Assembly (NCBI GenBank): GCA_903873805.1 | Contig: CAIQQB010000106.1 | Location: forward strand, 102,672-166,671 | Source: an uncultured Opitutia bacterium | GTDB lineage: Bacteria > Verrucomicrobiota > Verrucomicrobiia > Opitutales > Opitutaceae | Reading direction: 5' to 3' | Length of the DNA stretch: 64,000 bases | Shown here: positions 2,901 through 39,317 of the stretch, in pieces | Layout of the letters: each line of letters opens with the position of its first letter | Numbering within the stretch: the stretch's first letter is position 1 | Program-made: the position numbers and the translations under genes | The notes under the pieces: generated by a model | The model's database searches: none | Seen by the model: the letters and a program-made list of their open reading frames with translations, nothing else | What the model was told of the DNA's origin: nothing

Positions 2901-5900
2901 TCAGGGAATCCGCAGTTTCTGACCGGCGCGGAGCGAGTTTTCTCCCTTAAGCACGTCACGGTTGGCCTCGTAGATCTCCTGCCAGCGGTTGGGGGTGCCG
3001 TAGTAGCGCAGGCTGATCCGGGTGAGCGTCTCCCCTTCGGCCACCAGGTGGTAGCGCGGCTGGTCGGCGTCGGTCCCGCCGGAGGAGGGCGTGGCCGGAG
3101 TCGGCAACGGGCCGGCGCCGGGATTGATCAGACGTGCGGCTGAAGCGATCTGGTCGAGGGTGCTCTGGGCCTGCCGCAGGCGGGCGCTGAGCGCGCTGTT
3201 TTCCTGCTGGGCCTGGGCCAGGCGGGCACCCCGGTCGCGGTCGAGGGCCTGCACCTGTTCGCTCAGGCGGGCATTGTCGGCCTGGAGGCTGGCGAGCGTC
3301 TGCTGGCCGGCCGTCAGTCGGGCGTTGTCGGCCTGGAGGCTGGACAGCTGGGCGTTGACGCCGTCCAGCGACTGACGGAGCTGCTCCCGTTCCGTCGCGA
3401 TCTTCTCGTTCGTTCCGGTCAGCTCGGCGACGCTGGCGTTGTGCTGTTCGACGGCCTTGTCCGATTCGGCGAGGCGGGCCTTGAGCTCGGCGAGCTCGAT
3501 GCGGCTCTTGTCTGCCTCGGTGCGGACGGCGTCGGCCTGGGTGCGCGCGTCATCGGCGGCCTGCTGGAGCTGGCTGAGACGGGCGGCGTCGGCCTGGGCC
3601 GCGGCCAGCTGCTTGGCGAGGGCGGCTTTTTCCGTTTCCAGCCGGGTCTTGGCCGCGGTGAGATCGTCCACGGCGGCGTTCTGCTGCCGGGTCAGGCTTT
3701 CGGTGGCGGTGTACCGGGGTTTGAGTTCGGCCAGTTCGGCGCGGGCCTGGTCGAGGAGCGGTCGCAGTTGGGCGAGCTGCTGCTGCAGGTCCGTATTGGA
3801 GGTGGTGAGCTTGTCGTTGAGCCCCGTCAGCTCGGCGACGCTGGCGTTATGCTGTTCGACGGCCTTGTCGGATTCGGCGAGCTTGGCTTTGAAATCGGCC
3901 AGGGCGGAACGGTTCCGGTCGGCCTCGACCTGGCTGGACTCGGCCTGGGCGCGGGCGGCGTCGGCTTCCTGCTGGAGCCGGCTGTTGGTGGTGGCGAGAT
4001 CGCGGGCCTTGGCGGCGAGTTGGTCGGCCTCGGTCTTGGACATGGAGTCCTCGGTGGACTTGGAGTCGAGCAGCGCGCGGTTGGCTTCCGCGAGGAGTTT
4101 GTTGGTGTCGCGCGAGCGGCTGAGCTGGTCGGCGAGCTGGGAGATTTCACGGGCCGAGTTGCCGCGGTCCTCCTCGAGCTGAGATTCGACCTGCTGCACG
4201 CGCGCCTGGAGGGTGTGGATTTCCAGCTGGGAGGCGGCGGCGGCGGGCACGGCGGCGGCGGCGGCGGCCTGCGCAGCGAGGGCGGCGGCGGTGCCCTGTT
4301 TGGCGACTTCGAGATCCTTTTCGAGGGAATCATTCCGCCCGGTGAGCTCGGCGACGGTCTTCTGGCTGCTGTCGAGGGCCTTGTTGGCTTCGTCCAGCTG
4401 GCTGGCCAGCAGGGTCGCGTTGCCACCCGTTGCCTGGGCTTGCTGGGCGGCGGCGAGGGCGATCCTGAGCCGGGCCACTTCCGCGGCGGCCGTCGCGGCG
4501 TCGCGGCTGCCGGCGGACAGCTGCTGGTTGTCCGCCGTGAGGCGCTGCACCTCGGCCTGCAAACCGCTGACCGTCTGGCTGAGCTTGGCGGAAGCGGCGC
4601 GCTCATTGCTGAGCTGGGTGGCAAGCTGCGAGACGGCGGCATGATCCTGCGCCTGATCGCTGGCGGTGGCGGCGAGCTGCTCATTGCGGGCGGCCAGATC
4701 GGCGCGGGCCTTGTCCAGCGCCGCGTTGGCCGAGCGCTGTTCGTCGAGCTGCGCGGACAGAGCCGCGAGCTGCTGCCGCAGGACGGCGTCCTGTTTGGTC
4801 TGGTCGGCGGCGGTGGAGAGTCGGGCGTTGGCCTCGGCCAGCTGCAGGCGCAGGGCGCCGAGGTTGTGTTCGGCGTCGGTGGAAGTTTTGTCGCGGGCGG
4901 CGAGGGCGTCGCGGGCGGCAGTCTGGGCTTGGGCGGCGGCCTGCTGGGAGGCGGCGAGGGTCTTGCTGGTGTCGTCCAACTGGGCGCCGAGGGCGGCCTG
5001 TTCCTTCTGGGCGGCAGTGAGGGCGGCCTTGAGCCGGGTGTTTTCGGCCGCGGCAGCGGTTGCCTCCTGGGTGGTGGCGGCGAGGCTCTGTTTCTCGGCG
5101 GCGAGCCGCTGGTTTTCCGCCGTCAGGGCGGTGAGTCGGGCGGCCTGATCGGCGGCGTCCTTGGTCAGTTTTTCGGCGGCGGCGCGCTGTTCGGCGAGCT
5201 GCGCGGTCGTGGCGGCGAGTTGCTGCGCCTGGTCGCCGGCCGCGGAGAGGCGCGTGTTGGCGTCGGCCAGCTGCTGCCGCAGCCCCGCCAGTTCGCGCGC
5301 GGCCTCGTCGCGGGCGGCAGTCTGGGCCTGGGCGGCGGTCTGCCGGGCGGCCTCGAGCTCCTTGGCGAGACCGTCGGTTTTGGCGGTGCTCGCCGCAGCG
5401 GCGGCCTGGGTGTCCTTGTTCGTCTTGTTGGCCTCGAACAATTCGGCGGCGAGCCGCGAATTCTCGGTGCGTCGGGTGGCCGTTTCCTGCTGGAGCGTAT
5501 CGAGCTCGGTTTTGAGGCGGGTGAGTTCGGCGGCGTCGGCACCCGACGCTTCGGCGGGTGCCGTGCTCAAGCGCTGGTTGTCCGCGGCCAGCTTGTCGGC
5601 CCGGGCGGTTAGGTCGGTGTTGGCCTGGGCGAGCTTGTCCGCAGCGGCTTGCTGGGCCGCGAGCTTGGTCGTGAGGTCGGTGACCTGCTGGCGCAGCGTG
5701 GTGGTCTGGGCGGCCTGGTCGCCGCTGCCGGCCTGCGCGGTGGCGAGCTGGGCGGCCAGCTTGTCGCGGTCGGTCCGCGCCTGGGCGGCGGCTTGCTGGG
5801 CGACGGCCAGAGCGCGGCCGGCGTCGTCGAGCTGCGTCTGCAGGGCGGCGAGATTCGGCTGGGCGGCGGCGGATTTCTGGGCGTCCGCGGTGAGCTGGTC

Positions 5901-8681
5901 GACCTTCGCCGCCAGATTGGCGTTGGCCTTTTCGAGTTTGGTGCCGGTGTCGGTCTGGGCGGCGGCGGCCTGCGTGAGCCGGTCGTTGGCGGCCCGCTGG
6001 TCCGCGAGCTGTTTCGTGGCGTCGGCAAGCTGTTGCTGCAGGGCGGCGAGGTCGCGGCTTCCGGTCTGGGCGGTGGCGAGGGCGGCGATGGCCTTGTCCC
6101 GCTCGGCCTGGGCCGCCGCGGCGGCCTGCTGGGCGGCGGTGAGCTTGGTCTGGAGGGCGGCGAGATCGGGCCGGTCAGCCGAGGCTTTCTGGGTGTCGGC
6201 GGTGAGCTGGTCGACGCGGGCGGTCAGTTCGGTGTTGGTTCTTTCGAGGTTGGCGGCGACGGTCTGTTGGGTGGCGGCCGACTGGGTGAGCTCTTCGTTG
6301 GTCGTGCGCTGGGCGGCAAGCTGGGCGGTGAGATCGGCCACCTGCTGGCGGAGGGTCCCCTGGGTCTGGGCGGCGGCCTGCTGGGCGGCGGCGAGATCGG
6401 CGTTGGCCTTGTCGCGTTCGGTCTGTGAGAGCTTCACATTCGTGGCGCGCAAGTCGGCCACCAGGGCGTTGGCCGCGGCCATCTGCTGGCGCTGGGTGGC
6501 CCGTTCCTGGTCGGCGCTGCTGTGGGCGGCGGCAAGGTCCGTGGTGGCCTTGTCGCGGGCGGCGAGGGCGTCGCGGGAGGCGGTCTGGGCCTGGGCGGCG
6601 GCCTGCTGGGCGAGCACGAGCGCCTTGTTGGCGGCATCGAGCTGGGTCGCGAGCTTGTCATTCATGGCATGCTCGGCGGCGGATTTCCGGGCGTCGGCGG
6701 CGAGCTGGTCGTTGCGGACGGCGAAGTCGGAGTTGGCCTTTTCCAGCCGTGTGACGATGGCCTGCTGGGTGGCGGCGCTCACGGCGAGCTTGTCATTGGC
6801 GGCGCGCAGCTCGGCGAGCTGCGCCGTGGTGGCCTCGAGCTGCTGTTTGAGCGCCGTGGTCTGCTGGGTCTGGTTTCCGGCCGCGGCCACGCGCGCGGTG
6901 GCGTCACTCAGCTGGGCCTGGGCCGCCACCAGTTCGCGGGCGGCGGCTGTCCGGGCGCGCTCGGCGTCGGTGGCGAGCTGGGTCTGGGCGGCGACGGCGG
7001 CGTGGTCCTTTTCGGTCTGAAGGGCGAGCTTGGCGTTGGCGGCGCGGAGTTCCGCCAGCTGGCGTTCGGCATCGGGATTGGCGGCGGGAGTGGCCGGCGG
7101 GGTCGCGGCGAGTCGGCTGTTGTCGGCGATCAGGCTGGCCTTCTCCGTCGCGAGGCGCTCGTTGTCGGCGCGCAGTCCGGCGATGACCGCGTTGAGCGCG
7201 GCGTCGGAGGCGGGGGGAGTGCTGGCGGCGTCGGCGCCGGCGGGCTGGGTGGCCGTGGCGCTCAGCTGGCGGCGGATGTTGCCGAGTTCGATGGAGGCGC
7301 TTTTCACCTCGTCGTTGAGCCGGCGATTGTCGTCGGAAAGACTGCGGATGTGGTTTTCGTCGTCGGCGAGGCTCTGGCGGAGACGGGTGGCGTCGTCGGC
7401 GCCGGCGGTGCCGGTGGCGGCGGTGACGCGGAGTTGGGCGTTTTCGGCGGTGAGCTGTTCGACGCTGGCGCGGGCGGCGGCGAGCTGCGCGGTGAGATCG
7501 GGTGACGGCTGGGGGGCGGGGGTGGCGGCGGCCTTTTCGCGGGCGAGCTGCTGGTTGGTCTCGACCAGCTGGAGGTTGGTGGCGCGGGCCTGGGCAAGTT
7601 CCGTTTCCAGGCTGCGGACCCGGGCGGCGAGGGCGGCGGTGTCAGCCGATGGTACCGGCACAGCGGCCGGCGTGGGGGCGGGCGTGATGGCGGAGACGGA
7701 GACGGGGGTGGGAGCGCTGGTGCTGGCGGGCGGCGGCCGAGTGGGGCGGGCGGCCTCGGCGAGGAGCGGGGCGGTGGGGGCCAGACGGCTGCGCAGGCTG
7801 GCGAGCTGGGTGCGGCCGGCGGCGAGCTGGGCTTCGGACATGCGCTGCACAACCAGGTCGCGTCCCTTGGGTTCGGAGCCGTTTTCAACCGCGAGGGAGA
7901 GCCAGGCGTAGCCTTCGGGCAGATTGGCTTCAGCCCCGCCGCGGCCTTCGGCGATCATGATGCCGAGGTTGTTCTGGGCCGGCCCGAAGTTTTGTTCGGC
8001 GGCGGCGCGGTAGAGGGTGGCGGCGACGGCGTCGCTGTGGGCGACGCCGCGACCCTCCTCATACATCAGGGCGAGATTGTAGCGGGCGCGGGCGTAACCC
8101 TGGTCGGCGGCGGCCCGGTACCATTGTGCGGCCTTGGTGTCATCCTGCACGACGCCGCGGCCCAGTTCGTAGGCGAGGGCGAGGTTGTGCTGGGCCTCGG
8201 GCAGGCCGCTCTTCGCCGCCTGGCTGAACCAGACGGCCGCCTCGAGGAAATCCTGCTTCACGCCGAGACCGTTGCCATACATGTTGCCGACATTGAACTC
8301 CGCCGGCGGGTAGCCCAGCTGGGCGGACTGCAGGTAGAGCTTGAAGGCCGCGACGAGGTCGGCGGGCTGGTCCCGGCCGGTTTCCGCGAGGGTGCCGAGG
8401 TTGAAGATGGCCGGGGCGTAATGCTTGTCCGCAGCCGCGTGATAAAGCTGGGCGGCCTGGGCGTAATCCTGGGCGACGCCCTCGCCGTTGTTGTAGGCAT
8501 TGCCGAGGAGGGTGAGGGCGGCGGGATCGCCGCTGGCGGCTTTTTCGCGGATGGTGCGGAGGTCGGGCGCGGCGGAGTCGGCGGCGAGGAGGGGCAGGGC
8601 GAGCAGCGCGAGCAGAACCAAAATCTGGCTGGGTTGAAAAGCGGGGAAATGCCGCGATCGAAGGGGGAGCAATTGGGTCAT
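2901..8681 (-). CDS. giant (1926-aa) secreted protein: signal peptide, Sel1/TPR-like repeats, a ~1500-aa Ala/Gln-rich coiled coil with 136-aa tandem repeats, and a C-terminal LysM peptidoglycan-binding domain
   Basis: The likely start is the ATG at 8681 (MTQLLPLRSRHFPAFQPSQILVLLALLALPLLAADS); the ORF-track start at 8690 is a GTG. Sel1 repeats of the form 'A..L..GYP.A.FNVGNMYGNGLGV.QD...A..W' span about 7870-8525. Heptad-rich repeats include 'ESDKAVEQHNASVAELTG' twice, exactly 136 aa apart. The LysM motif 'YHLVAEGETLTRISLRYYG…LRAGQKLRIP' occupies about 2904-3059. Confidence 0.8.
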   Translation of the reverse strand: MTQLLPLRSRHFPAFQPSQILVLLALLALPLLAADSAAPDLRTIREKAASGDPAALTLLGNAYNNGEGVAQDYAQAAQLYHAAADKHYAPAIFNLGTLAETGRDQPADLVAAFKLYLQSAQLGYPPAEFNVGNMYGNGLGVKQDFLEAAVWFSQAAKSGLPEAQHNLALAYELGRGVVQDDTKAAQWYRAAADQGYARARYNLALMYEEGRGVAHSDAVAATLYRAAAEQNFGPAQNNLGIMIAEGRGGAEANLPEGYAWLSLAVENGSEPKGRDLVVQRMSEAQLAAGRTQLASLRSRLAPTAPLLAEAARPTRPPPASTSAPTPVSVSAITPAPTPAAVPVPSADTAALAARVRSLETELAQARATNLQLVETNQQLAREKAAATPAPQPSPDLTAQLAAARASVEQLTAENAQLRVTAATGTAGADDATRLRQSLADDENHIRSLSDDNRRLNDEVKSASIELGNIRRQLSATATQPAGADAASTPPASDAALNAVIAGLRADNERLATEKASLIADNSRLAATPPATPAANPDAERQLAELRAANAKLALQTEKDHAAVAAQTQLATDAERARTAAARELVAAQAQLSDATARVAAAGNQTQQTTALKQQLEATTAQLAELRAANDKLAVSAATQQAIVTRLEKANSDFAVRNDQLAADARKSAAEHAMNDKLATQLDAANKALVLAQQAAAQAQTASRDALAARDKATTDLAAAHSSADQERATQRQQMAAANALVADLRATNVKLSQTERDKANADLAAAQQAAAQTQGTLRQQVADLTAQLAAQRTTNEELTQSAATQQTVAANLERTNTELTARVDQLTADTQKASADRPDLAALQTKLTAAQQAAAAAQAERDKAIAALATAQTGSRDLAALQQQLADATKQLADQRAANDRLTQAAAAQTDTGTKLEKANANLAAKVDQLTADAQKSAAAQPNLAALQTQLDDAGRALAVAQQAAAQARTDRDKLAAQLATAQAGSGDQAAQTTTLRQQVTDLTTKLAAQQAAADKLAQANTDLTARADKLAADNQRLSTAPAEASGADAAELTRLKTELDTLQQETATRRTENSRLAAELFEANKTNKDTQAAAAASTAKTDGLAKELEAARQTAAQAQTAARDEAARELAGLRQQLADANTRLSAAGDQAQQLAATTAQLAEQRAAAEKLTKDAADQAARLTALTAENQRLAAEKQSLAATTQEATAAAAENTRLKAALTAAQKEQAALGAQLDDTSKTLAASQQAAAQAQTAARDALAARDKTSTDAEHNLGALRLQLAEANARLSTAADQTKQDAVLRQQLAALSAQLDEQRSANAALDKARADLAARNEQLAATASDQAQDHAAVSQLATQLSNERAASAKLSQTVSGLQAEVQRLTADNQQLSAGSRDAATAAAEVARLRIALAAAQQAQATGGNATLLASQLDEANKALDSSQKTVAELTGRNDSLEKDLEVAKQGTAAALAAQAAAAAAVPAAAASQLEIHTLQARVQQVESQLEEDRGNSAREISQLADQLSRSRDTNKLLAEANRALLDSKSTEDSMSKTEADQLAAKARDLATTNSRLQQEADAARAQAESSQVEADRNRSALADFKAKLAESDKAVEQHNASVAELTGLNDKLTTSNTDLQQQLAQLRPLLDQARAELAELKPRYTATESLTRQQNAAVDDLTAAKTRLETEKAALAKQLAAAQADAARLSQLQQAADDARTQADAVRTEADKSRIELAELKARLAESDKAVEQHNASVAELTGTNEKIATEREQLRQSLDGVNAQLSSLQADNARLTAGQQTLASLQADNARLSEQVQALDRDRGARLAQAQQENSALSARLRQAQSTLDQIASAARLINPGAGPLPTPATPSSGGTDADQPRYHLVAEGETLTRISLRYYGTPNRWQEIYEANRDVLKGENSLRAGQKLRIP

Positions 8682-33181: not shown

Positions 33182-33547
33182 TCATTTGGCCTTGCGCTGG
33201 TGGAGGGTGATGACGTTGCCGTCGTCGTCCTTGATCTGGAACATGCGGCAGGGAGGGAACTCGACGGGGGCGGTGGTGATGGTGACGCCGGCGGCCAGGA
33301 CGGCCCGGTGGGCGGCGTCGAGATCGGCGACCTCGAGCGCGAGGGAGGAGGCGGGCTTGCCGGGCATGGCGTTGGAGACCGCCAGGGCCTGGCCGGCGAT
33401 GTCGTATTCGATCCACCACTGGCCGGGGGCGAATTCAACCTGCACGCCCGTCTTCAGGCCGAGCAGGCCCTCGTAAAACTTGCGGGCGCGCGGGATGTCG
33501 GTGACGAGGTGAAATACGAACGCGATTTCTTTGACCTGGATGCTCAT
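33182..33547 (-). CDS. VOC/glyoxalase-bleomycin-resistance family protein, inserted between sucC and sucD
   Basis: 121 aa. 'IAFVFHLVTDIPRARKFYEGLLGLK' and the C-terminal 'MFQIKDDDGNVITL' match the VOC beta-alpha-beta-beta-beta fold. Confidence 0.8.
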   Translation of the reverse strand: MSIQVKEIAFVFHLVTDIPRARKFYEGLLGLKTGVQVEFAPGQWWIEYDIAGQALAVSNAMPGKPASSLALEVADLDAAHRAVLAAGVTITTAPVEFPPCRMFQIKDDDGNVITLHQRKAK

Positions 33548-34947: not shown

Positions 34948-34981
34948 AAAAAAAGGGGCCGGATCCCGCAGGACCGGCCCC
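34948..34981 (-). terminator. rho-independent terminator of the sigma-NfeD/flotillin operon
   Basis: Minus-strand hairpin GGGGCCGG-11nt-CCGGCCCC followed by T7, 45 nt downstream of the flotillin stop. Confidence 0.65.
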
Positions 34982-35025: not shown

Positions 35026-36534
35026 TTACGGTTCCTTATGCTCCATGGCCTTTTTCAGCGCGGGCACCTGCTCCATGAGCCTCTCGAGCTTCACGCCGGT
35101 GAGCGCCTCGAGCACGGGCGGCAGCTGGCTGAGAATGGTGGTGACATCGCCGGTGAGCTTGCTGGCCCCGCCGCCGGGGCCGGAACCGGCGTTGATAATG
35201 ACCATCTTCTCGGTCTTGGCGAGGGGGGCCGAGATCTGTCCGGCAATTTCCGGCAGGGCGCGGACGATGAGCTCGATGATGGCGGCCTGGTTGTACTCCT
35301 TGAACGACTCGGCCTTCTTGCGCATCGCCTCGGCAGTCGCGAGGCCCTGCGCCTCGATCACGGACGCTTCGGCCAGACCGCGGGCCTTGTTGGCGTCGGC
35401 CTCGGCCGAACCGGTGGCTTTCACGACGTCGGCGGCGGCAAAGCCGGTGGCCTTGGTCGCCGCCGCGGTGCCGGCGGCCTCGGTCTCCAGCTGGAACTTC
35501 CGCGCGGCGGCGAGCGTCTCGACCTTGTAGCGTTCGGCGTCCGCCGGCTTCTGGACATTGGCCTCGAGCTCGCGCTGGCGGCGGAGAATTTCCTGCTGCT
35601 GCAGCTCGATCTGCTTCTGCTTCTCGACGATACTGACCTGCACCTCCTCGGCCTTGACGAGCTGGTTGGTCTTGAACTTCTGGAGATCGTAGGCGAGCTC
35701 GGACTGGGCCTTCTTCTGGTTCACCGATGCATTGTAGTCGGCGACGTTCATCTGGTAGTCGCGCTGGGCCTCGGCGATCTTGCTGTCGGCGGCAAACTTC
35801 GCCTCCTGTCCGGCCTGCGAGGCCAGGGCGGTGCGGATGGCGGCGTCGCGGTCGGCCTCGGCCTGGGCGATCTGGGCGTCGCGCTTGACCTGGGCGATGC
35901 GGGGCTTGCCGAGGGCGTCGAGGTAACCCTGGGTGTCGCGGATGTCGCGGATGGTGAAGCTGACGATGCTGAGGCCCATGTTGGCCATGTCGCCGGCGGC
36001 GACCTCCTGGACCTTCGAGGCGAACGCGTCGCGGTTCTGGTAGATCTCCTCGACGGTCATCGTGCCGAGGATGGCGCGCAGGTGGCCCTCGAGCGTCTGC
36101 ATGGCGATGTTCTTGATGTCGTCCACGCCCTTGCTGAGGAACTGTTCGGCGGCGGTGGCGATCGAGACGTCGTCGCCCTTGACTTTGATCTGCGCGACGC
36201 CGTCGACCTTCACCGGCACGCCCTTGCTGGTGTAGACCTCGGGGGTCTGCACATCGATGGTCAGCAGCTCGAGCGAGAGGATGTCGGACTTTTCGAGAAC
36301 CGGGATGATGAAGGTGCCGCCGCCCTTGACGACCCGGAACCCGCGGATGGCGGTCTTGCCATCGGCCCCGGTGACGCGGTGCTGTTTGCCGGAGACGATG
36401 AGCACCTCGTTGGGGCCGACCTTGGTGTAGCGGCTGGCCCAGACGACGGCGAACACGAAGATGACGGCGACAATGCCGACGATCGCGACGATGGTGGTGC
36501 TGACGCCGAGGATATCTGCGAGGGGGAGGTTCAT
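35026..36534 (-). CDS. flotillin-like SPFH/band-7 domain protein (FloT/YqiK-like)
   Basis: 502 aa with an N-terminal TM anchor and the SPFH domain 'VGPNEVLIVSGK…'. A long EA-rich coiled coil follows ('AQAEADRDAAIRTALASQAGQEAKFAADSKIAEAQRD…'). Confidence 0.9.
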   Translation of the reverse strand: MNLPLADILGVSTTIVAIVGIVAVIFVFAVVWASRYTKVGPNEVLIVSGKQHRVTGADGKTAIRGFRVVKGGGTFIIPVLEKSDILSLELLTIDVQTPEVYTSKGVPVKVDGVAQIKVKGDDVSIATAAEQFLSKGVDDIKNIAMQTLEGHLRAILGTMTVEEIYQNRDAFASKVQEVAAGDMANMGLSIVSFTIRDIRDTQGYLDALGKPRIAQVKRDAQIAQAEADRDAAIRTALASQAGQEAKFAADSKIAEAQRDYQMNVADYNASVNQKKAQSELAYDLQKFKTNQLVKAEEVQVSIVEKQKQIELQQQEILRRQRELEANVQKPADAERYKVETLAAARKFQLETEAAGTAAATKATGFAAADVVKATGSAEADANKARGLAEASVIEAQGLATAEAMRKKAESFKEYNQAAIIELIVRALPEIAGQISAPLAKTEKMVIINAGSGPGGGASKLTGDVTTILSQLPPVLEALTGVKLERLMEQVPALKKAMEHKEP

Positions 36535-36582
36535 GGTGAAATGGTCGGGAGGTGGACAGGCGATTTGCCGGCGGGCCGGCGC

Positions 36583-37956
36583 TCAGGGCGCGGAGACATA
36601 AAACTGGGTGCCGACGATGCGGGTGATCTTCACCGTGGCGCCGCTGGCGAAAGTCGCGCCGCCCTCGGAGCGGGCGGGGGCGGTGTAGCGCGAGCCGAGC
36701 TGCACATAGGCGATTTCGCCGACGCCCTCGGCGGCGATGGGCGTGATGACGGTCGCAGCCTGACCGGCCAGGCCGGCCACGCGGCCCTCGCTGGAGCCCT
36801 GGGTTTTCCGGAAAATCGTGTCGAACAGCCAGAACACCACGGCCGCAATGATGATGCCGCCGGCAGCCGAGAGCGGCCCGCTGATCCACCAGGTGCGTGT
36901 GGCCTCGACTTGGGTGAAAATCATCCCCAGTCCGCCGAACGCGGTGACAAACGCCGCCAGCGTGGTCGGGCTGAGCGGGGAAAAGCCGGGCATCTCGTTC
37001 GGGCCGCCGCCAGCCTCGGCGTGGCCCTGGGCGTGGCCGCCATGGTCAACATGCCCGCCGATCTCATTGCCCGCTTCGGCATGGCCGCCGAACGCATGAC
37101 CGGCCACCGCGCTCAGCAGCGTAAAAAGCAGTCCGACCCCGAAGCAGACCGAGTAGACCAGCACCGCCGTGCTGTCGGCCGTCTCGTCGCCAGTGGCGAA
37201 ACCAGCCGCGCCCACGCCGGCGAGCGCGATGACGCCCGGCTGGACTTTGTTCAGGGAGAAAATCTTTGAGAGCTTGGCAAGCAGGCCCGCGCCGCCCACG
37301 ACCGCGGTCGGGTGGGTCAACGCGCCGGCCGCCAGCGTCGTGGCGAGGCCGGCCGGGAACGCCGTCGCCGCGTTGGTGGTGAGGACCAGGCCGAGGGCGG
37401 CGGCCGTCGAGGTGATGCCTTTCTTCACGAGGACGAGGCGCAATTTTTCCAGTGCCCGTTCCGCGCGCATCCGGGCCGAGCTTTCGCCGATGCCGAGCTT
37501 TTCGCCCATCGCGGCGAACGGCTGCTCTTCAAAATAGCGCAACAAAATCGCCGCGCGGTCCGGCTCCGCGAGTTCGCAGATGGCTTCGTCAATCAGCGGG
37601 CGGACCTGCGCCCAGGCGTGATCGTCGGGGGAGCCGCGTTCCATTTCCTGCCAGGTTCCGGACTCCCGTTCGCGGGCCTGGCGCCGCTTTTCCGCCCGCC
37701 GGGCCTTGAGCGAGGCGAAGCGGGTGCTGGTGTAGAGCCAACTGACGAGGACCGGCCGGTCGGCGAGCTGGCCGGCTTTGCGGGCGAGGTCGATGAACAC
37801 GCTTTGGCTCACATCCTGCGCCAGCAACGTGTCGCCGCCGACCTGGCGCAGCGCGGCGGAATAAACGAGACTGGTCCGGCGCTGGACCAGCTCGGCAAAG
37901 GCGGTATCCGACCCTTCATGAACATGGCGGCGCAGCAATTCGGCATCGTTCATCAT
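36583..37956 (-). CDS. ECF (sigma-70 family) RNA polymerase sigma factor fused to a multi-TM, His-rich NfeD-like membrane and OB-fold domain
   Basis: 457 aa from ATGATG at 37956 (MMNDAELLRRHV…). Region 2 reads 'FAELVQRRTSLVYSAALRQVGGDTLLAQDVSQSVFIDLARK' and region 4 'ILLRYFEEQPFAAMGEKLGIGESSARMRAERALEKLR'. About 5 TM helices flank the His-rich loop 'HAFGGHAEAGNEIGGHVDHGGHAQGHAEAGGG'. The C-terminus is an NfeD-type OB barrel ('GRVAGLAGQAATVITPIAAEGVGEIAYVQLGSRYTAPARSEGGATFASGATVKITRIVGTQFYV'). A 48-nt gap separates it from the flotillin gene. Confidence 0.75.
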   Translation of the reverse strand: MMNDAELLRRHVHEGSDTAFAELVQRRTSLVYSAALRQVGGDTLLAQDVSQSVFIDLARKAGQLADRPVLVSWLYTSTRFASLKARRAEKRRQARERESGTWQEMERGSPDDHAWAQVRPLIDEAICELAEPDRAAILLRYFEEQPFAAMGEKLGIGESSARMRAERALEKLRLVLVKKGITSTAAALGLVLTTNAATAFPAGLATTLAAGALTHPTAVVGGAGLLAKLSKIFSLNKVQPGVIALAGVGAAGFATGDETADSTAVLVYSVCFGVGLLFTLLSAVAGHAFGGHAEAGNEIGGHVDHGGHAQGHAEAGGGPNEMPGFSPLSPTTLAAFVTAFGGLGMIFTQVEATRTWWISGPLSAAGGIIIAAVVFWLFDTIFRKTQGSSEGRVAGLAGQAATVITPIAAEGVGEIAYVQLGSRYTAPARSEGGATFASGATVKITRIVGTQFYVSAP

Positions 37957-38319
37957 TGCCTCATTACACCCGCCGGCGGAGGCAATGGCACATCCGGGCG
38001 AAGAAGATTCGCCCGGGAGGGTGGCGGGACGGCGGGGACAGGCGTCCATAACGCACCCATTTAAGCAAGTTTTCCCGGCGAGCGCACTTAGAATCTGGCC
38101 GGCGGTTTCCAATCGTCGTGTCGCCGCCCTTTTGGGGTTGGGCGCGGGCTTGGGGCCATTTAACGAAGGCTGTATTGAGCAGGGCCGGATTGGGCCCAGC
38201 CTCCGGATGGCCGGTCACAGCTGGTCCTGTTCCCCAATGCATCGTAAGTCGAAAAGTCCAAGTGCCGGCGCGCTCTCGCGCTTGCCAATCCCAGCGCCGG
38301 CGCACAACCTCGGCCCACC

Positions 38320-38796
38320 ATGGACTCACATGAGGTGATGAAGGAGCTGCTGAAAAAGACCGGGGCGAAGCAGGTGGCCGCCGAGCTCGGGCTGTCGCTG
38401 TCCCTGATCTACAAATGGGCCGAGCCGCCCGAGGAGGGCACCGGTAGTGGTGCCGGCAACCCGCTCGACCGCGTTGGTCAGCTCATCCGCCTCACGGGCG
38501 ACGCCCGGCTCGCGCAATGGGTCTGCGAACAGGCGGGCGGATTTTACATCCGCAATCCGAAGAACCTCGCGCCGGGGCGGGCGTTGATCCCGATCACCAA
38601 CGACATCGTGCAGGAGTTTGCCGACATGCTCGCCACCATCGCAATCTCGTCGTCGGACAATGTGATCACCGATGAGGAGGCGAAGAAAATCCGGGCGCGG
38701 TGGGAGGAGCTGAAGAGCGTGACGGAGGGATTCGTGCAGGCGGCGGAGGTCGGCAACTTCGGTCCGCCGGTGGAGCCGAGGACAGCACGGGGCTGA
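38320..38796 (+). CDS. hypothetical HTH protein (phage CII-like / Cro-CI-like regulator?)
   Basis: 158 aa. 'KQVAAELGLSLSLIYKWAEP' looks like a helix-turn-helix. It diverges from the sigma-NfeD gene and I could not place it in a family. Confidence 0.45.
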   Translation: MDSHEVMKELLKKTGAKQVAAELGLSLSLIYKWAEPPEEGTGSGAGNPLDRVGQLIRLTGDARLAQWVCEQAGGFYIRNPKNLAPGRALIPITNDIVQEFADMLATIAISSSDNVITDEEAKKIRARWEELKSVTEGFVQAAEVGNFGPPVEPRTARG

Positions 38797-38801
38797 TCCG
38801 C

Positions 38802-39317
38802 TCAGAGGCTGTCCCGCCCCTGATGGCGGACGGCGGCGCATTCCGGGCAGAGCCGCTGTTCGGTCGGTCGGACGGGATGTTCCCGCAGGCAGTCCGCGAG
38901 GCTCTTGCGCAGACCGGCAATCTGTTCGATGCGGTCGCAGGCGGGGCAGATCCGCAGCAGCGTTTCGAGCTGCTCGATCCGTTCCCGGTCGGATTTGCGG
39001 CCGCGTTTAAAGATGTGAAAACTGAAGGCGATAAAGGCGAGAATCACAAAGCTCGACAGACCGCGCTCCCAGAAAATCCACGGGCGGGAATAGTGGGTGT
39101 TGACCGCCCAGTCCGCCCAGCGGTGGACGAGGGTGGAGATGATGCCGAGCCAGAGTCCCGCCGCCAGACCCGAAAACCAAGTCGCCCAGACCACGGGAAG
39201 AATATAGAGAAAGAAAACGCTGATCTCGAATCCCGTCTCATAGTCCAGCCAGGTCGCCAGCACGAGCATCGCCAGAGCGATGAGCAGCGCAGTGAACTGA
39301 CGGGGGGCAGGTTTCAT
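38802..39317 (-). CDS. hypothetical membrane protein with a C-terminal CxxC…CxxC zinc-ribbon
   Basis: 171 aa with 4 TM helices and 'ICPACDRIEQ…CPECAAV' at the C-terminus. Confidence 0.5.
   Translation of the reverse strand: MKPAPRQFTALLIALAMLVLATWLDYETGFEISVFFLYILPVVWATWFSGLAAGLWLGIISTLVHRWADWAVNTHYSRPWIFWERGLSSFVILAFIAFSFHIFKRGRKSDRERIEQLETLLRICPACDRIEQIAGLRKSLADCLREHPVRPTEQRLCPECAAVRHQGRDSL

Follow-up and report, generated by a model that had tools for sequence, protein, structure and literature searches.

A conserved fusion between an ECF sigma factor and the flotillin partner NfeD in Opitutaceae

In Bacillus subtilis both flotillin operons are controlled by sigmaW, a sigma factor of the extracytoplasmic function (ECF) type (PMC8581546). 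Here we analyse a locus in which an ECF sigma factor and a flotillin operon are brought together more closely. It lies in a stretch of 64,000 nucleotides (hereafter the window, which means this whole stretch) from an uncultured Opitutia bacterium (contig CAIQQB010000106.1 of assembly GCA_903873805.1, positions 102,672 to 166,671 of the forward strand). A single open reading frame (ORF) on the minus strand, 36583..37956, encodes a protein of 457 residues that starts as an ECF sigma factor and continues into a complete NfeD, the membrane partner of flotillins; a flotillin gene follows it. The nearest described counterpart is sigmaW/RsiW of B. subtilis with yuaF(nfeD2)-floT-yuaI and floA, where a membrane-stress ECF sigma factor drives an nfeD-flotillin operon (PMC8581546). 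In B. subtilis, however, sigma factor, anti-sigma factor and NfeD are separate proteins from separate loci, whereas here sigma factor and NfeD form one polypeptide encoded in the flotillin operon itself. Release of sigmaW depends on cleavage of RsiW by PrsW and RasP.

Fused sigma/anti-sigma proteins are known as well. IutY (ECF243) of Pseudomonas putida and the groups ECF48, ECF52 and ECF53 (for example SCO4117) belong to this type, and in IutY the activating proteolysis is carried out by Prc and RseP (PMC8999054). As in the window protein, one chain carries a sigma domain followed by one or more transmembrane segments. In contrast, these proteins possess an anti-sigma domain of the FecR or ZAS type and a periplasmic sensor, while in the window fusion the profile searches described below detected no anti-sigma domain, and the chain proceeds into a multi-pass NfeD module predicted to end in the cytoplasm.

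Two groups in the ECF classification of Casas-Pastor et al. (2021) resemble the fusion locus in one respect each, as judged from the available part of that work. ECF263, there the sole group with a multi-transmembrane extension (five or seven C-terminal helices), likewise joins an ECF sigma factor to such an extension, and a minority of its members come from Verrucomicrobia. Yet about 90% of its members are proteobacterial, the extension resembles a fatty-acid desaturase, the promoter reads TGCAC(A/C)-Xn-CGTC and a DUF2007 anti-sigma gene sits at position -1. On these descriptions we rejected ECF263 as an earlier account of the present architecture: here the extension is an NfeD, the promoter-like boxes differ and the gene at -1 encodes a CII-like helix-turn-helix (HTH) regulator. 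ECF273 of Proteobacteria, where NfeD makes its sole appearance in the accessible part of the classification, has conserved SPFH/Band 7 and NfeD-like genes nearby, but with a separate RskA-like anti-sigma factor and a PDZ protein, and no fusion.

The second half of the window protein resembles the short NfeDs that accompany SPFH proteins, such as YuaF with FloT, Staphylococcus aureus NfeD with FloA and Escherichia coli YbbJ with QmcA. All share a part with three transmembrane helices, a cytoplasmic OB domain and a gene directly before that of the SPFH protein or flotillin; unlike the window protein, they have no N-terminal sigma domain and no extra anchor helix. Binding to the partner is known for S. 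aureus NfeD-FloA (PMC11222466) and for YbbJ-QmcA (PMC13086221). Full-text literature searches yielded no paper that describes an ECF-NfeD fusion, in line with an earlier interpretation of this DNA (the sequence-only reading), which was not aware of any description of the architecture. The fusion is nevertheless present in public databases, though annotated generically only: the source names read 'sigma-70 family RNA polymerase sigma factor' and nothing more.

The reading frame of the fusion stays open upstream to 38112, and the conserved start is the methionine of the MMNDAELL/MxDDxELL motif. One database entry, P0121, matches the window protein with 100% identity. Its start is set at the second methionine, which leaves 456 residues, and look-up of the exact 457-residue sequence returned no match for this reason. 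The P0121 locus was recovered in several ENA assemblies. Residues 1-180 (37417..37956, minus strand) form the ECF sigma domain, supported by Pfam, TIGR02937, AlphaFold2 (AF2) and Foldseek. In Pfam, Sigma70_r2 (PF04542) covers residues 23-92 and r4/r4_2 (PF04545, PF08281) residues 122-173, all above their curated cut-offs, and NCBIfam TIGR02937 (sigma70-ECF) reaches 57.7 bits, where 42.9 is the cut-off. By domain content the protein belongs to the ECF sigma factors (group 4), as only sigma2 and sigma4 are present, both beyond the curated thresholds; the profiles thus bear out the ECF sigma factor with regions 2 and 4 proposed initially. The AF2 model has a mean predicted local distance difference test score (pLDDT) of 79.5, exceeding 90 in the sigma domain, in the second and third helices of the NfeD part and in the OB strands. 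Foldseek matches the sigma domain to SigW, AlgU, SigK, SigE and SigL, and the modelled domains reach TM-scores of 0.82-0.89 against sigmaE region 2 and likewise 0.82-0.89 against SigL region 4.

Behind sigma4 comes a conserved segment rich in Ala, Gly and Thr (residues 181-235), annotated as residues 181-238 (37243..37416, minus strand; GITSTAAALG...AAPAGLA...), which is common to a whole family of sigma factors and is predicted to form short helices. With an alignment of 119 family members, AF2 places these helices at 185-195, 204-213 and 225-234, with a pLDDT that drops from 82 to 50 along the segment and stays at about 82-71 in the first two. All of these 119 members share P201, and conservation is 90% or higher at G180, L188 and G203. 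Several family members have Arg, Gln or Asn within the segment, and the modules that follow the transmembrane helix in paralogues are mostly of an extracytoplasmic type; residues 181-235 therefore probably do not span the membrane. The segment has no Cys and hence no HxxxCxxC motif. Residues 181-262 may contain a short anti-sigma element resembling class II.

Residues 239-262 (37171..37242, minus strand) hold the predicted anchor helix, TM0, and behind it a short acidic loop that would lie outside, both assigned from hydropathy, charge and the position of the transmembrane helix in paralogues. Over 71 fusions the hydrophobic stretch at about 239-257 has a median best hydropathy of 1.62 (17-residue windows), and the net charge is +2.7 before it and negative after it. 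Paralogues have a transmembrane helix at the same position, followed by extracytoplasmic-type domains. Then follows the membrane part of NfeD, residues 263-385 (36802..37170, minus strand), assigned from hydropathy, AF2 and PF25842 and consisting of TM1, a His-rich acidic loop, TM2 and TM3. Hydropathy gives three strong transmembrane stretches at about 264-286, 328-348 and 358-380, and AF2 gives helices at 261-289, 330-349 and 356-385. A precomputed PF25842 (NfeD_TM) match exists for P0121. The count of about five transmembrane helices put forward earlier is thus replaced, on hydropathy, by three strong helices and one weak anchor.

The His-rich acidic loop (residues 290-327; 36976..37089, minus strand) ends in an invariant MPGF.P..PTT motif. 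The His-rich stretch quoted in the sequence-only reading, residues 287-318 between TM1 and TM2, is present as described. A metal sense would be nothing peculiar to the fusion, for the loop with its MPGF.P..PTT motif is also found in unfused NfeDs of Verrucomicrobia, and in a looser form in Syntrophia and Planctomycetes. By this comparison it is a trait of an NfeD subfamily and not of the fusion. His-rich cytoplasmic loops of metal transporters resemble the loop of this subfamily.

Residues 386-457 (36586..36801, minus strand) form the C-terminal OB-fold, the partner-binding domain, assigned from PF01957, Foldseek and motif conservation. In the window protein PF01957 matches residues 394-454 with an E-value of 5.4e-4 and 20.6 bits, which is under the gathering score of 29.1, whereas 7 of 10 fusion orthologues are matched, the best with an E-value of 1.9e-6. 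The modelled C-terminus superposes on YuaF (2K14, TM-score 0.72), 3CP0 (0.76) and PH1510-C (3WWV, 0.75), and Foldseek also matches it to YbbJ in the cryo-EM complex QmcA-YbbJ (8Z5G). The motif GVGEIAYVQ.G.RY.APAR is invariant among fusions and near-identical in distant stand-alone NfeDs. When residues 228-457 served as the query, over 2,500 relatives were obtained; among the top matches listed nearly all are stand-alone proteins of 187-200 residues, 58-78% identical to the window protein, which carry PF25842 and often PF01957 and, where a source name is given, are called 'NfeD family protein' (NCBI). Stand-alone NfeDs of about 190 residues begin at window residues 263-266 or so, and the NfeD region aligns with them from end to end. 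The orthologue matches, PF25842 on P0121, the stand-alone relatives and the AlphaFold superpositions together make the assignment of the C-terminal half as a complete NfeD secure on profile and model evidence, despite the sub-threshold PF01957 score. This agrees with the NfeD/OB-fold assignment made initially, and the observation that would have spoken against it, a C-terminal half unlike NfeD, did not arise. Three features of a short-form NfeD are there: an OB domain, a multi-pass membrane part and a gene position immediately before a flotillin, in a gene order that is kept in all related loci.

The flotillin gene itself (35026..36534, minus strand) encodes 502 residues with Band_7 (E-value 2.9e-33) and Flot (3.4e-7) domains in Pfam. 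It matches NCBIfam FloT with an E-value of 3.7e-157 and 524 bits; the equivalog cut-off of 700 is not reached, and we therefore speak of a flotillin-family or FloT-like protein rather than of an equivalog. One N-terminal transmembrane helix (residues 10-31) is followed by RYTK, which suggests that the bulk of the protein is cytoplasmic. In L022, the same locus in another ENA assembly, the flotillin (4420..5927) is split into ORFs of 370 and 132 residues, probably by an assembly frameshift; the window copy is intact. The gap between the fusion and flotillin genes measures exactly 48 nt and contains no terminator, and the two are probably co-transcribed. Behind the flotillin an intrinsic terminator, GGGGCCGG-N11-CCGGCCCC followed by T7 (34948..34981, minus strand), closes the two-gene unit before sucC. 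It was read directly, the automatic scan having missed it owing to the 11-nt loop, and it confirms the operon layout as first proposed.

Ahead of the fusion gene, promoter-like boxes TGTGCC-N14-CGGGTGTAA (37964..37992, minus strand) end 7 nt before the ATG and are kept in fusion loci. In all seven independent fusion loci the form TGTGC(C/G)-N13-14-CGG(G/C)(T/G)GTA(A/T) stands exactly 7 nt before the ATG, while the flanks diverge. Paralogous sigma genes have related boxes (TGTGCG or TGTTCGG with CGGGT or CGGTTA) at 10-16 nt before the ATG. The boxes resemble an ECF promoter by which members of the family would regulate themselves, and the mRNA would be leaderless or nearly so. A sigma-70 promoter scan of the region found nothing.

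Sigma-NfeD is a real and conserved gene in Opitutaceae. In a species survey, for which one genome per species was scanned for a full-length match, four further species of metagenome-assembled genomes (MAGs) matched over residues 1-456 at 60-65% identity, three with the label Opitutaceae and one with Verrucomicrobiota. At each of the four loci, and also on one metagenome contig, sigma domain, linker and NfeD lie in one frame, followed by a flotillin that is 82-93% identical. A search with residues 1-278 gave, among the matches listed, about 70 distinct 90%-identity clusters of fusions (447-487 residues; 56-78% identity), all carrying Sigma70_r2, r4 and NfeD_TM. Every named fusion locus is from Opitutaceae or Verrucomicrobiota. 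All full-length fusions fall in a single 50%-identity cluster, by which they would form one fairly young clade. The contigs that hold some of them measure up to 6.5 and 8.1 Mb; the 6.5-Mb contig, that of L024, has an assembler-style name which suggests that it stems from long reads. A flotillin follows the fusion wherever downstream DNA is available (L001-L005 and L022-L024). Among the 71 fusions the sigma and OB domains are best conserved (top-residue frequencies of 0.80 and 0.78), with the segment behind sigma4 at 0.74, and both halves retain the invariant residues of their unfused relatives, a pattern that indicates purifying selection on both. In L001, a related metagenome contig, an in-frame stop (3269..3271) lies between sigma regions 2 and 4, leaving an ORF of 132 residues with region 2 and another with region 4 and NfeD; it is either a sequencing error or a sign that the sigma part is being lost.

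The sigma half belongs to a much larger group. Over residues 1 to about 255 it has matches of about 45-58% identity in hundreds of clusters, formed at 50% identity, whose proteins are 250-1129 residues long (P0195-P0383; loci L007-L010, L012 and L014-L016 are examples). The shared part comprises the sigma domain, the GxTSTAAALG...AAPAGLA segment and one transmembrane helix, and the remainder varies: TonB_C, CarboxypepD_reg or Big_1 repeats, HEAT repeats and coiled coils, mostly of an extracytoplasmic type. Because of these modules, the stretch after the conserved segment is read as a single anchor running from inside to outside. Set beside the window fusion, the Verrucomicrobial paralogues agree in residues 1-255, in the GxTSTAAAL...AAPAGLA segment, in the anchor helix and in the related promoter boxes; they differ in that their C-terminal modules are single extracytoplasmic domains and in having no adjoining nfeD or flotillin. 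Seen against these alignments, NfeD is a module swapped in at the variable sensor position. Since residues 1-255 are shared across the family and only the module past the anchor varies, tethering or inhibition is probably a family property of the segment behind sigma4 and the anchor. The earlier proposal that NfeD replaces the anti-sigma function thereby calls for revision. No ECF group listed for Verrucomicrobia by Casas-Pastor et al., compared by description in the available part of that work, is described as sigma factor, transmembrane helix and variable module, and neither family peptides nor Opitutus gave a match in the accessible part of the sequence list of its bioRxiv supplement. No further sigma paralogues were found elsewhere in the window.

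How the fusion may have arisen can be read from its upstream region. Loci L026 and L028 have the same synteny (the CII-like gene divergent from nfeD, then floT, sucC, a glyoxalase gene and sucD) but a stand-alone nfeD of 191-199 residues, 71-74% identical to the NfeD part of the window protein. Window positions 38125..38020 align with the promoter and start region of such stand-alone loci (TGGAAAC...ATTCTAAGTG...ATGGACGCC). Within it, alignment with L026, L028, L025 and L006 marks a relic of the ancestral nfeD promoter region, TTGGAAAC-N10-ATTCTAAGTG (38085..38112, minus strand), for which we infer a promoter function. A relic of the ancestral nfeD start, ATGGACGCC, encoding M-D-A (38041..38049, minus strand), aligns with the stand-alone nfeD ATG in L026 and L028. 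Only in this genome does the old start codon, at 38049..38047, share the reading frame of the sigma ORF; at the other fusion loci stop codons occur 21-34 codons before the conserved start. The sigma cassette starts downstream of the relic start. As relic promoter and start lie upstream of the cassette, the simplest reading is an insertion: in an Opitutaceae ancestor the 5' end of nfeD would have received a paralogous sigma gene, which brought along its own promoter, segment and anchor. In a neighbour-joining tree of the NfeD part most fusions group together, with some stand-alone forms interleaved; the tree is too short and noisy for counting gains and losses and is compatible with an insertion. 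The direction of events rests on the relic start and promoter and on derivatives that retain TM0 alone (see below), not on this tree.

Positive charges follow TM3 across the fusions. From the number of membrane helices (the anchor plus three of NfeD) and the distribution of charges, both the His-rich loop and the OB domain are predicted to be cytoplasmic, and the topology would be sigma domain inside, a short loop outside, His-rich loop inside, a short loop outside and OB domain inside. With such a topology the graft point preserves the native topology of both parents. We infer that the OB domain lies on the same side as the SPFH domain of the flotillin, which agrees with what is published: NfeD has its OB domain in the cytosol, bound to the coiled coil of flotillin (PMC11222466), and the QmcA-YbbJ cage of 26 heterodimers protrudes into the cytoplasm (PMC13086221, citing Tan et al. 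2024).

Taken together, these data suggest that the state of a flotillin scaffold is wired directly to gene expression. The reading we favour, with about even chances of being correct, is that of a single-chain, membrane-tethered ECF sigma factor with NfeD as its input module, released according to the NfeD-flotillin state and boosting its own operon; tethering and autoregulation are both deduced. In this model the OB domain would dock on the co-transcribed flotillin, as NfeD does elsewhere, and the protein would join flotillin assemblies. The sigma domain would be held at or within these assemblies, away from RNA polymerase, and would be inactive as long as it is tethered. When NfeD-flotillin engagement fails or the membrane is perturbed, the tether would be cut; candidates are a site-2 protease in the Gly-rich TM0 and processing of the FtsH/Clp type that halts when it meets the folded sigma domain. 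IutY and ECF48/52/53 offer an analogy that makes release by regulated proteolysis plausible. The freed sigma factor would then act on the TGTGCC boxes upstream of its own ATG, giving more sigma-NfeD and more flotillin. The outcome would be a homeostatic loop in which one operon does the job that in B. subtilis is divided between sigmaW/RsiW and yuaF-floT.

Several observations weigh against this model. On the promoter side, the window holds no second copy of the motif, and one metagenome scan for TGTGCS-N14-CGGGTGTAA-N7-ATG gave six matches, none at a gene start, which we judged to be chance. On the protein side, no anti-sigma domain was found in residues 181-262 by Pfam, NCBIfam and PDB profile searches, and in two AlphaFold runs the predicted arrangement of sigma2 and sigma4 matches neither anti-sigma-bound nor RNA polymerase-bound structures. 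TM0 is borderline hydrophobic and is modelled with low confidence, and a multi-pass NfeD part is not the classical context for a site-2-protease substrate. Finally, in L025 (5001..5846, P0005) and P0003 the leader and TM0 remain while the sigma domain is missing, which looks like a secondary loss of the sigma cassette; the predicted products are NfeDs with four transmembrane helices. Together with the stop codon in L001, such losses imply that the coupling is dispensable.

The explanation that survives best beside this model, although we think it rather unlikely, takes NfeD as a mere replacement anchor for a lost module. The sigma factor would then work through the shared segment and TM0, and the fusion would be kept for the co-expression of three membrane-stress genes. 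Such an exchange fits a family that tolerates many unrelated C-terminal modules, and the single 50%-identity cluster makes the insertion look like a one-off; the sigma domain has been lost again in some lineages, and the NfeD part is unchanged with respect to stand-alone forms (65-78% identity). It is harder to reconcile with an in-frame fusion that persists over the roughly 70 clusters listed, at 56-78% identity and always with the flotillin downstream, or with the full retention of the partner-binding motif in the OB domain. Moreover, the variable module of the paralogues is extracytoplasmic and plausibly sensory, which makes the module position an input position.

In a further scenario, drawn from QmcA-YbbJ, where NfeD is built 1:1 into a cage that faces the cytoplasm, the flotillin assembly itself would serve as the anti-sigma factor. 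Sigma domains would be enclosed or crowded by the SPFH cage and hidden from RNA polymerase, and opening or disassembly of the cage, or a shortage of flotillin, would expose or release them. We regard this scenario as unlikely.

Still more doubtful is a sigma factor that is never released and acts while bound to the membrane, bringing both RNA polymerase and the nearby locus of the fusion itself into flotillin microdomains, in the manner of ToxR/CadC-type regulators, which act without release. The lack of a detected protease site or anti-sigma domain would suit such a protein; sigma4 and TM0 are joined by a linker of about 80 residues, which could supply the reach, and the sole copy of the motif in the window lies at its own gene. 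Against this, IutY, a characterised fused ECF sigma factor, is released by proteolysis, and we know of no precedent for a membrane-anchored sigma subunit that works in the holoenzyme.

Weakest by far is an artefact, in which an error of sequencing or assembly would have joined two genes, or the ORF would be a pseudogene in decay. The stop inside the sigma part of L001 and the flotillin in two ORFs in L022 point that way. Against it, all related loci (L001-L005 and L022-L024) have the junction in one frame, as do the roughly 70 protein clusters, which come from different studies and assemblers and include the 6.5-Mb contig, and both halves are under purifying selection. A frameshift or misassembly is ruled out as far as sequence data can do so; the chance that remains is negligible, and the single-ORF architecture, as first read, is real.

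Upstream of the fusion, the divergent CII-like HTH regulator gene (38320..38796, plus strand) is matched by Pfam Phage_CP76 (E-value 2e-6) and by PHROG 101, 'CII-like transcriptional activator' (2.6e-10). It is divergent from nfeD-floT in L002, L003, L005, L006, L022-L024 and L026-L027, regardless of whether nfeD is fused or stands alone; a Pedosphaera MAG is among the stand-alone cases. In phage lambda the stability of CII is controlled by FtsH with the SPFH proteins HflK/C, which makes a CII-like gene next to an SPFH operon intriguing. Further on, a gene at 38802..39317 (minus strand) encodes a membrane protein of 171 residues with about four N-terminal transmembrane helices and a C-terminal CPAC...CPEC pair; it has no Pfam match above threshold, and in L022, L023 and L028 it is likewise kept, with rph on one side and the CII-like gene on the other. 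On the other side, a glyoxalase-family gene (33182..33547, minus strand) lies between sucC and sucD, an unusual break in this pair; it is kept in relatives and present in three tandem copies in L024 (12384..13521).

The role of NfeD, and largely that of bacterial flotillins, is still called unclear in recent papers (PMC11222466, PMC13086221). A covalent fusion of NfeD to a sigma factor within a flotillin operon offers an experimental handle, as promoter activity or sigma cleavage could report on NfeD-flotillin engagement. The fusion also adds a new type of module to the single-chain ECF sigma factors, namely a multi-pass membrane protein that, by its predicted topology, ends in the cytoplasm, and it points to a very large Verrucomicrobial family of sigma factors with a transmembrane anchor and an exchangeable module. 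If the proposed coupling is true, the operon would hold in compact form what Bacillus has as its sigmaW-flotillin stress circuit. Should the flotillin assembly itself act as the anti-sigma factor, transcription would read out the assembly of a microdomain scaffold, and the fusion could serve as a 'Rosetta stone' for NfeD-flotillin signalling in general.

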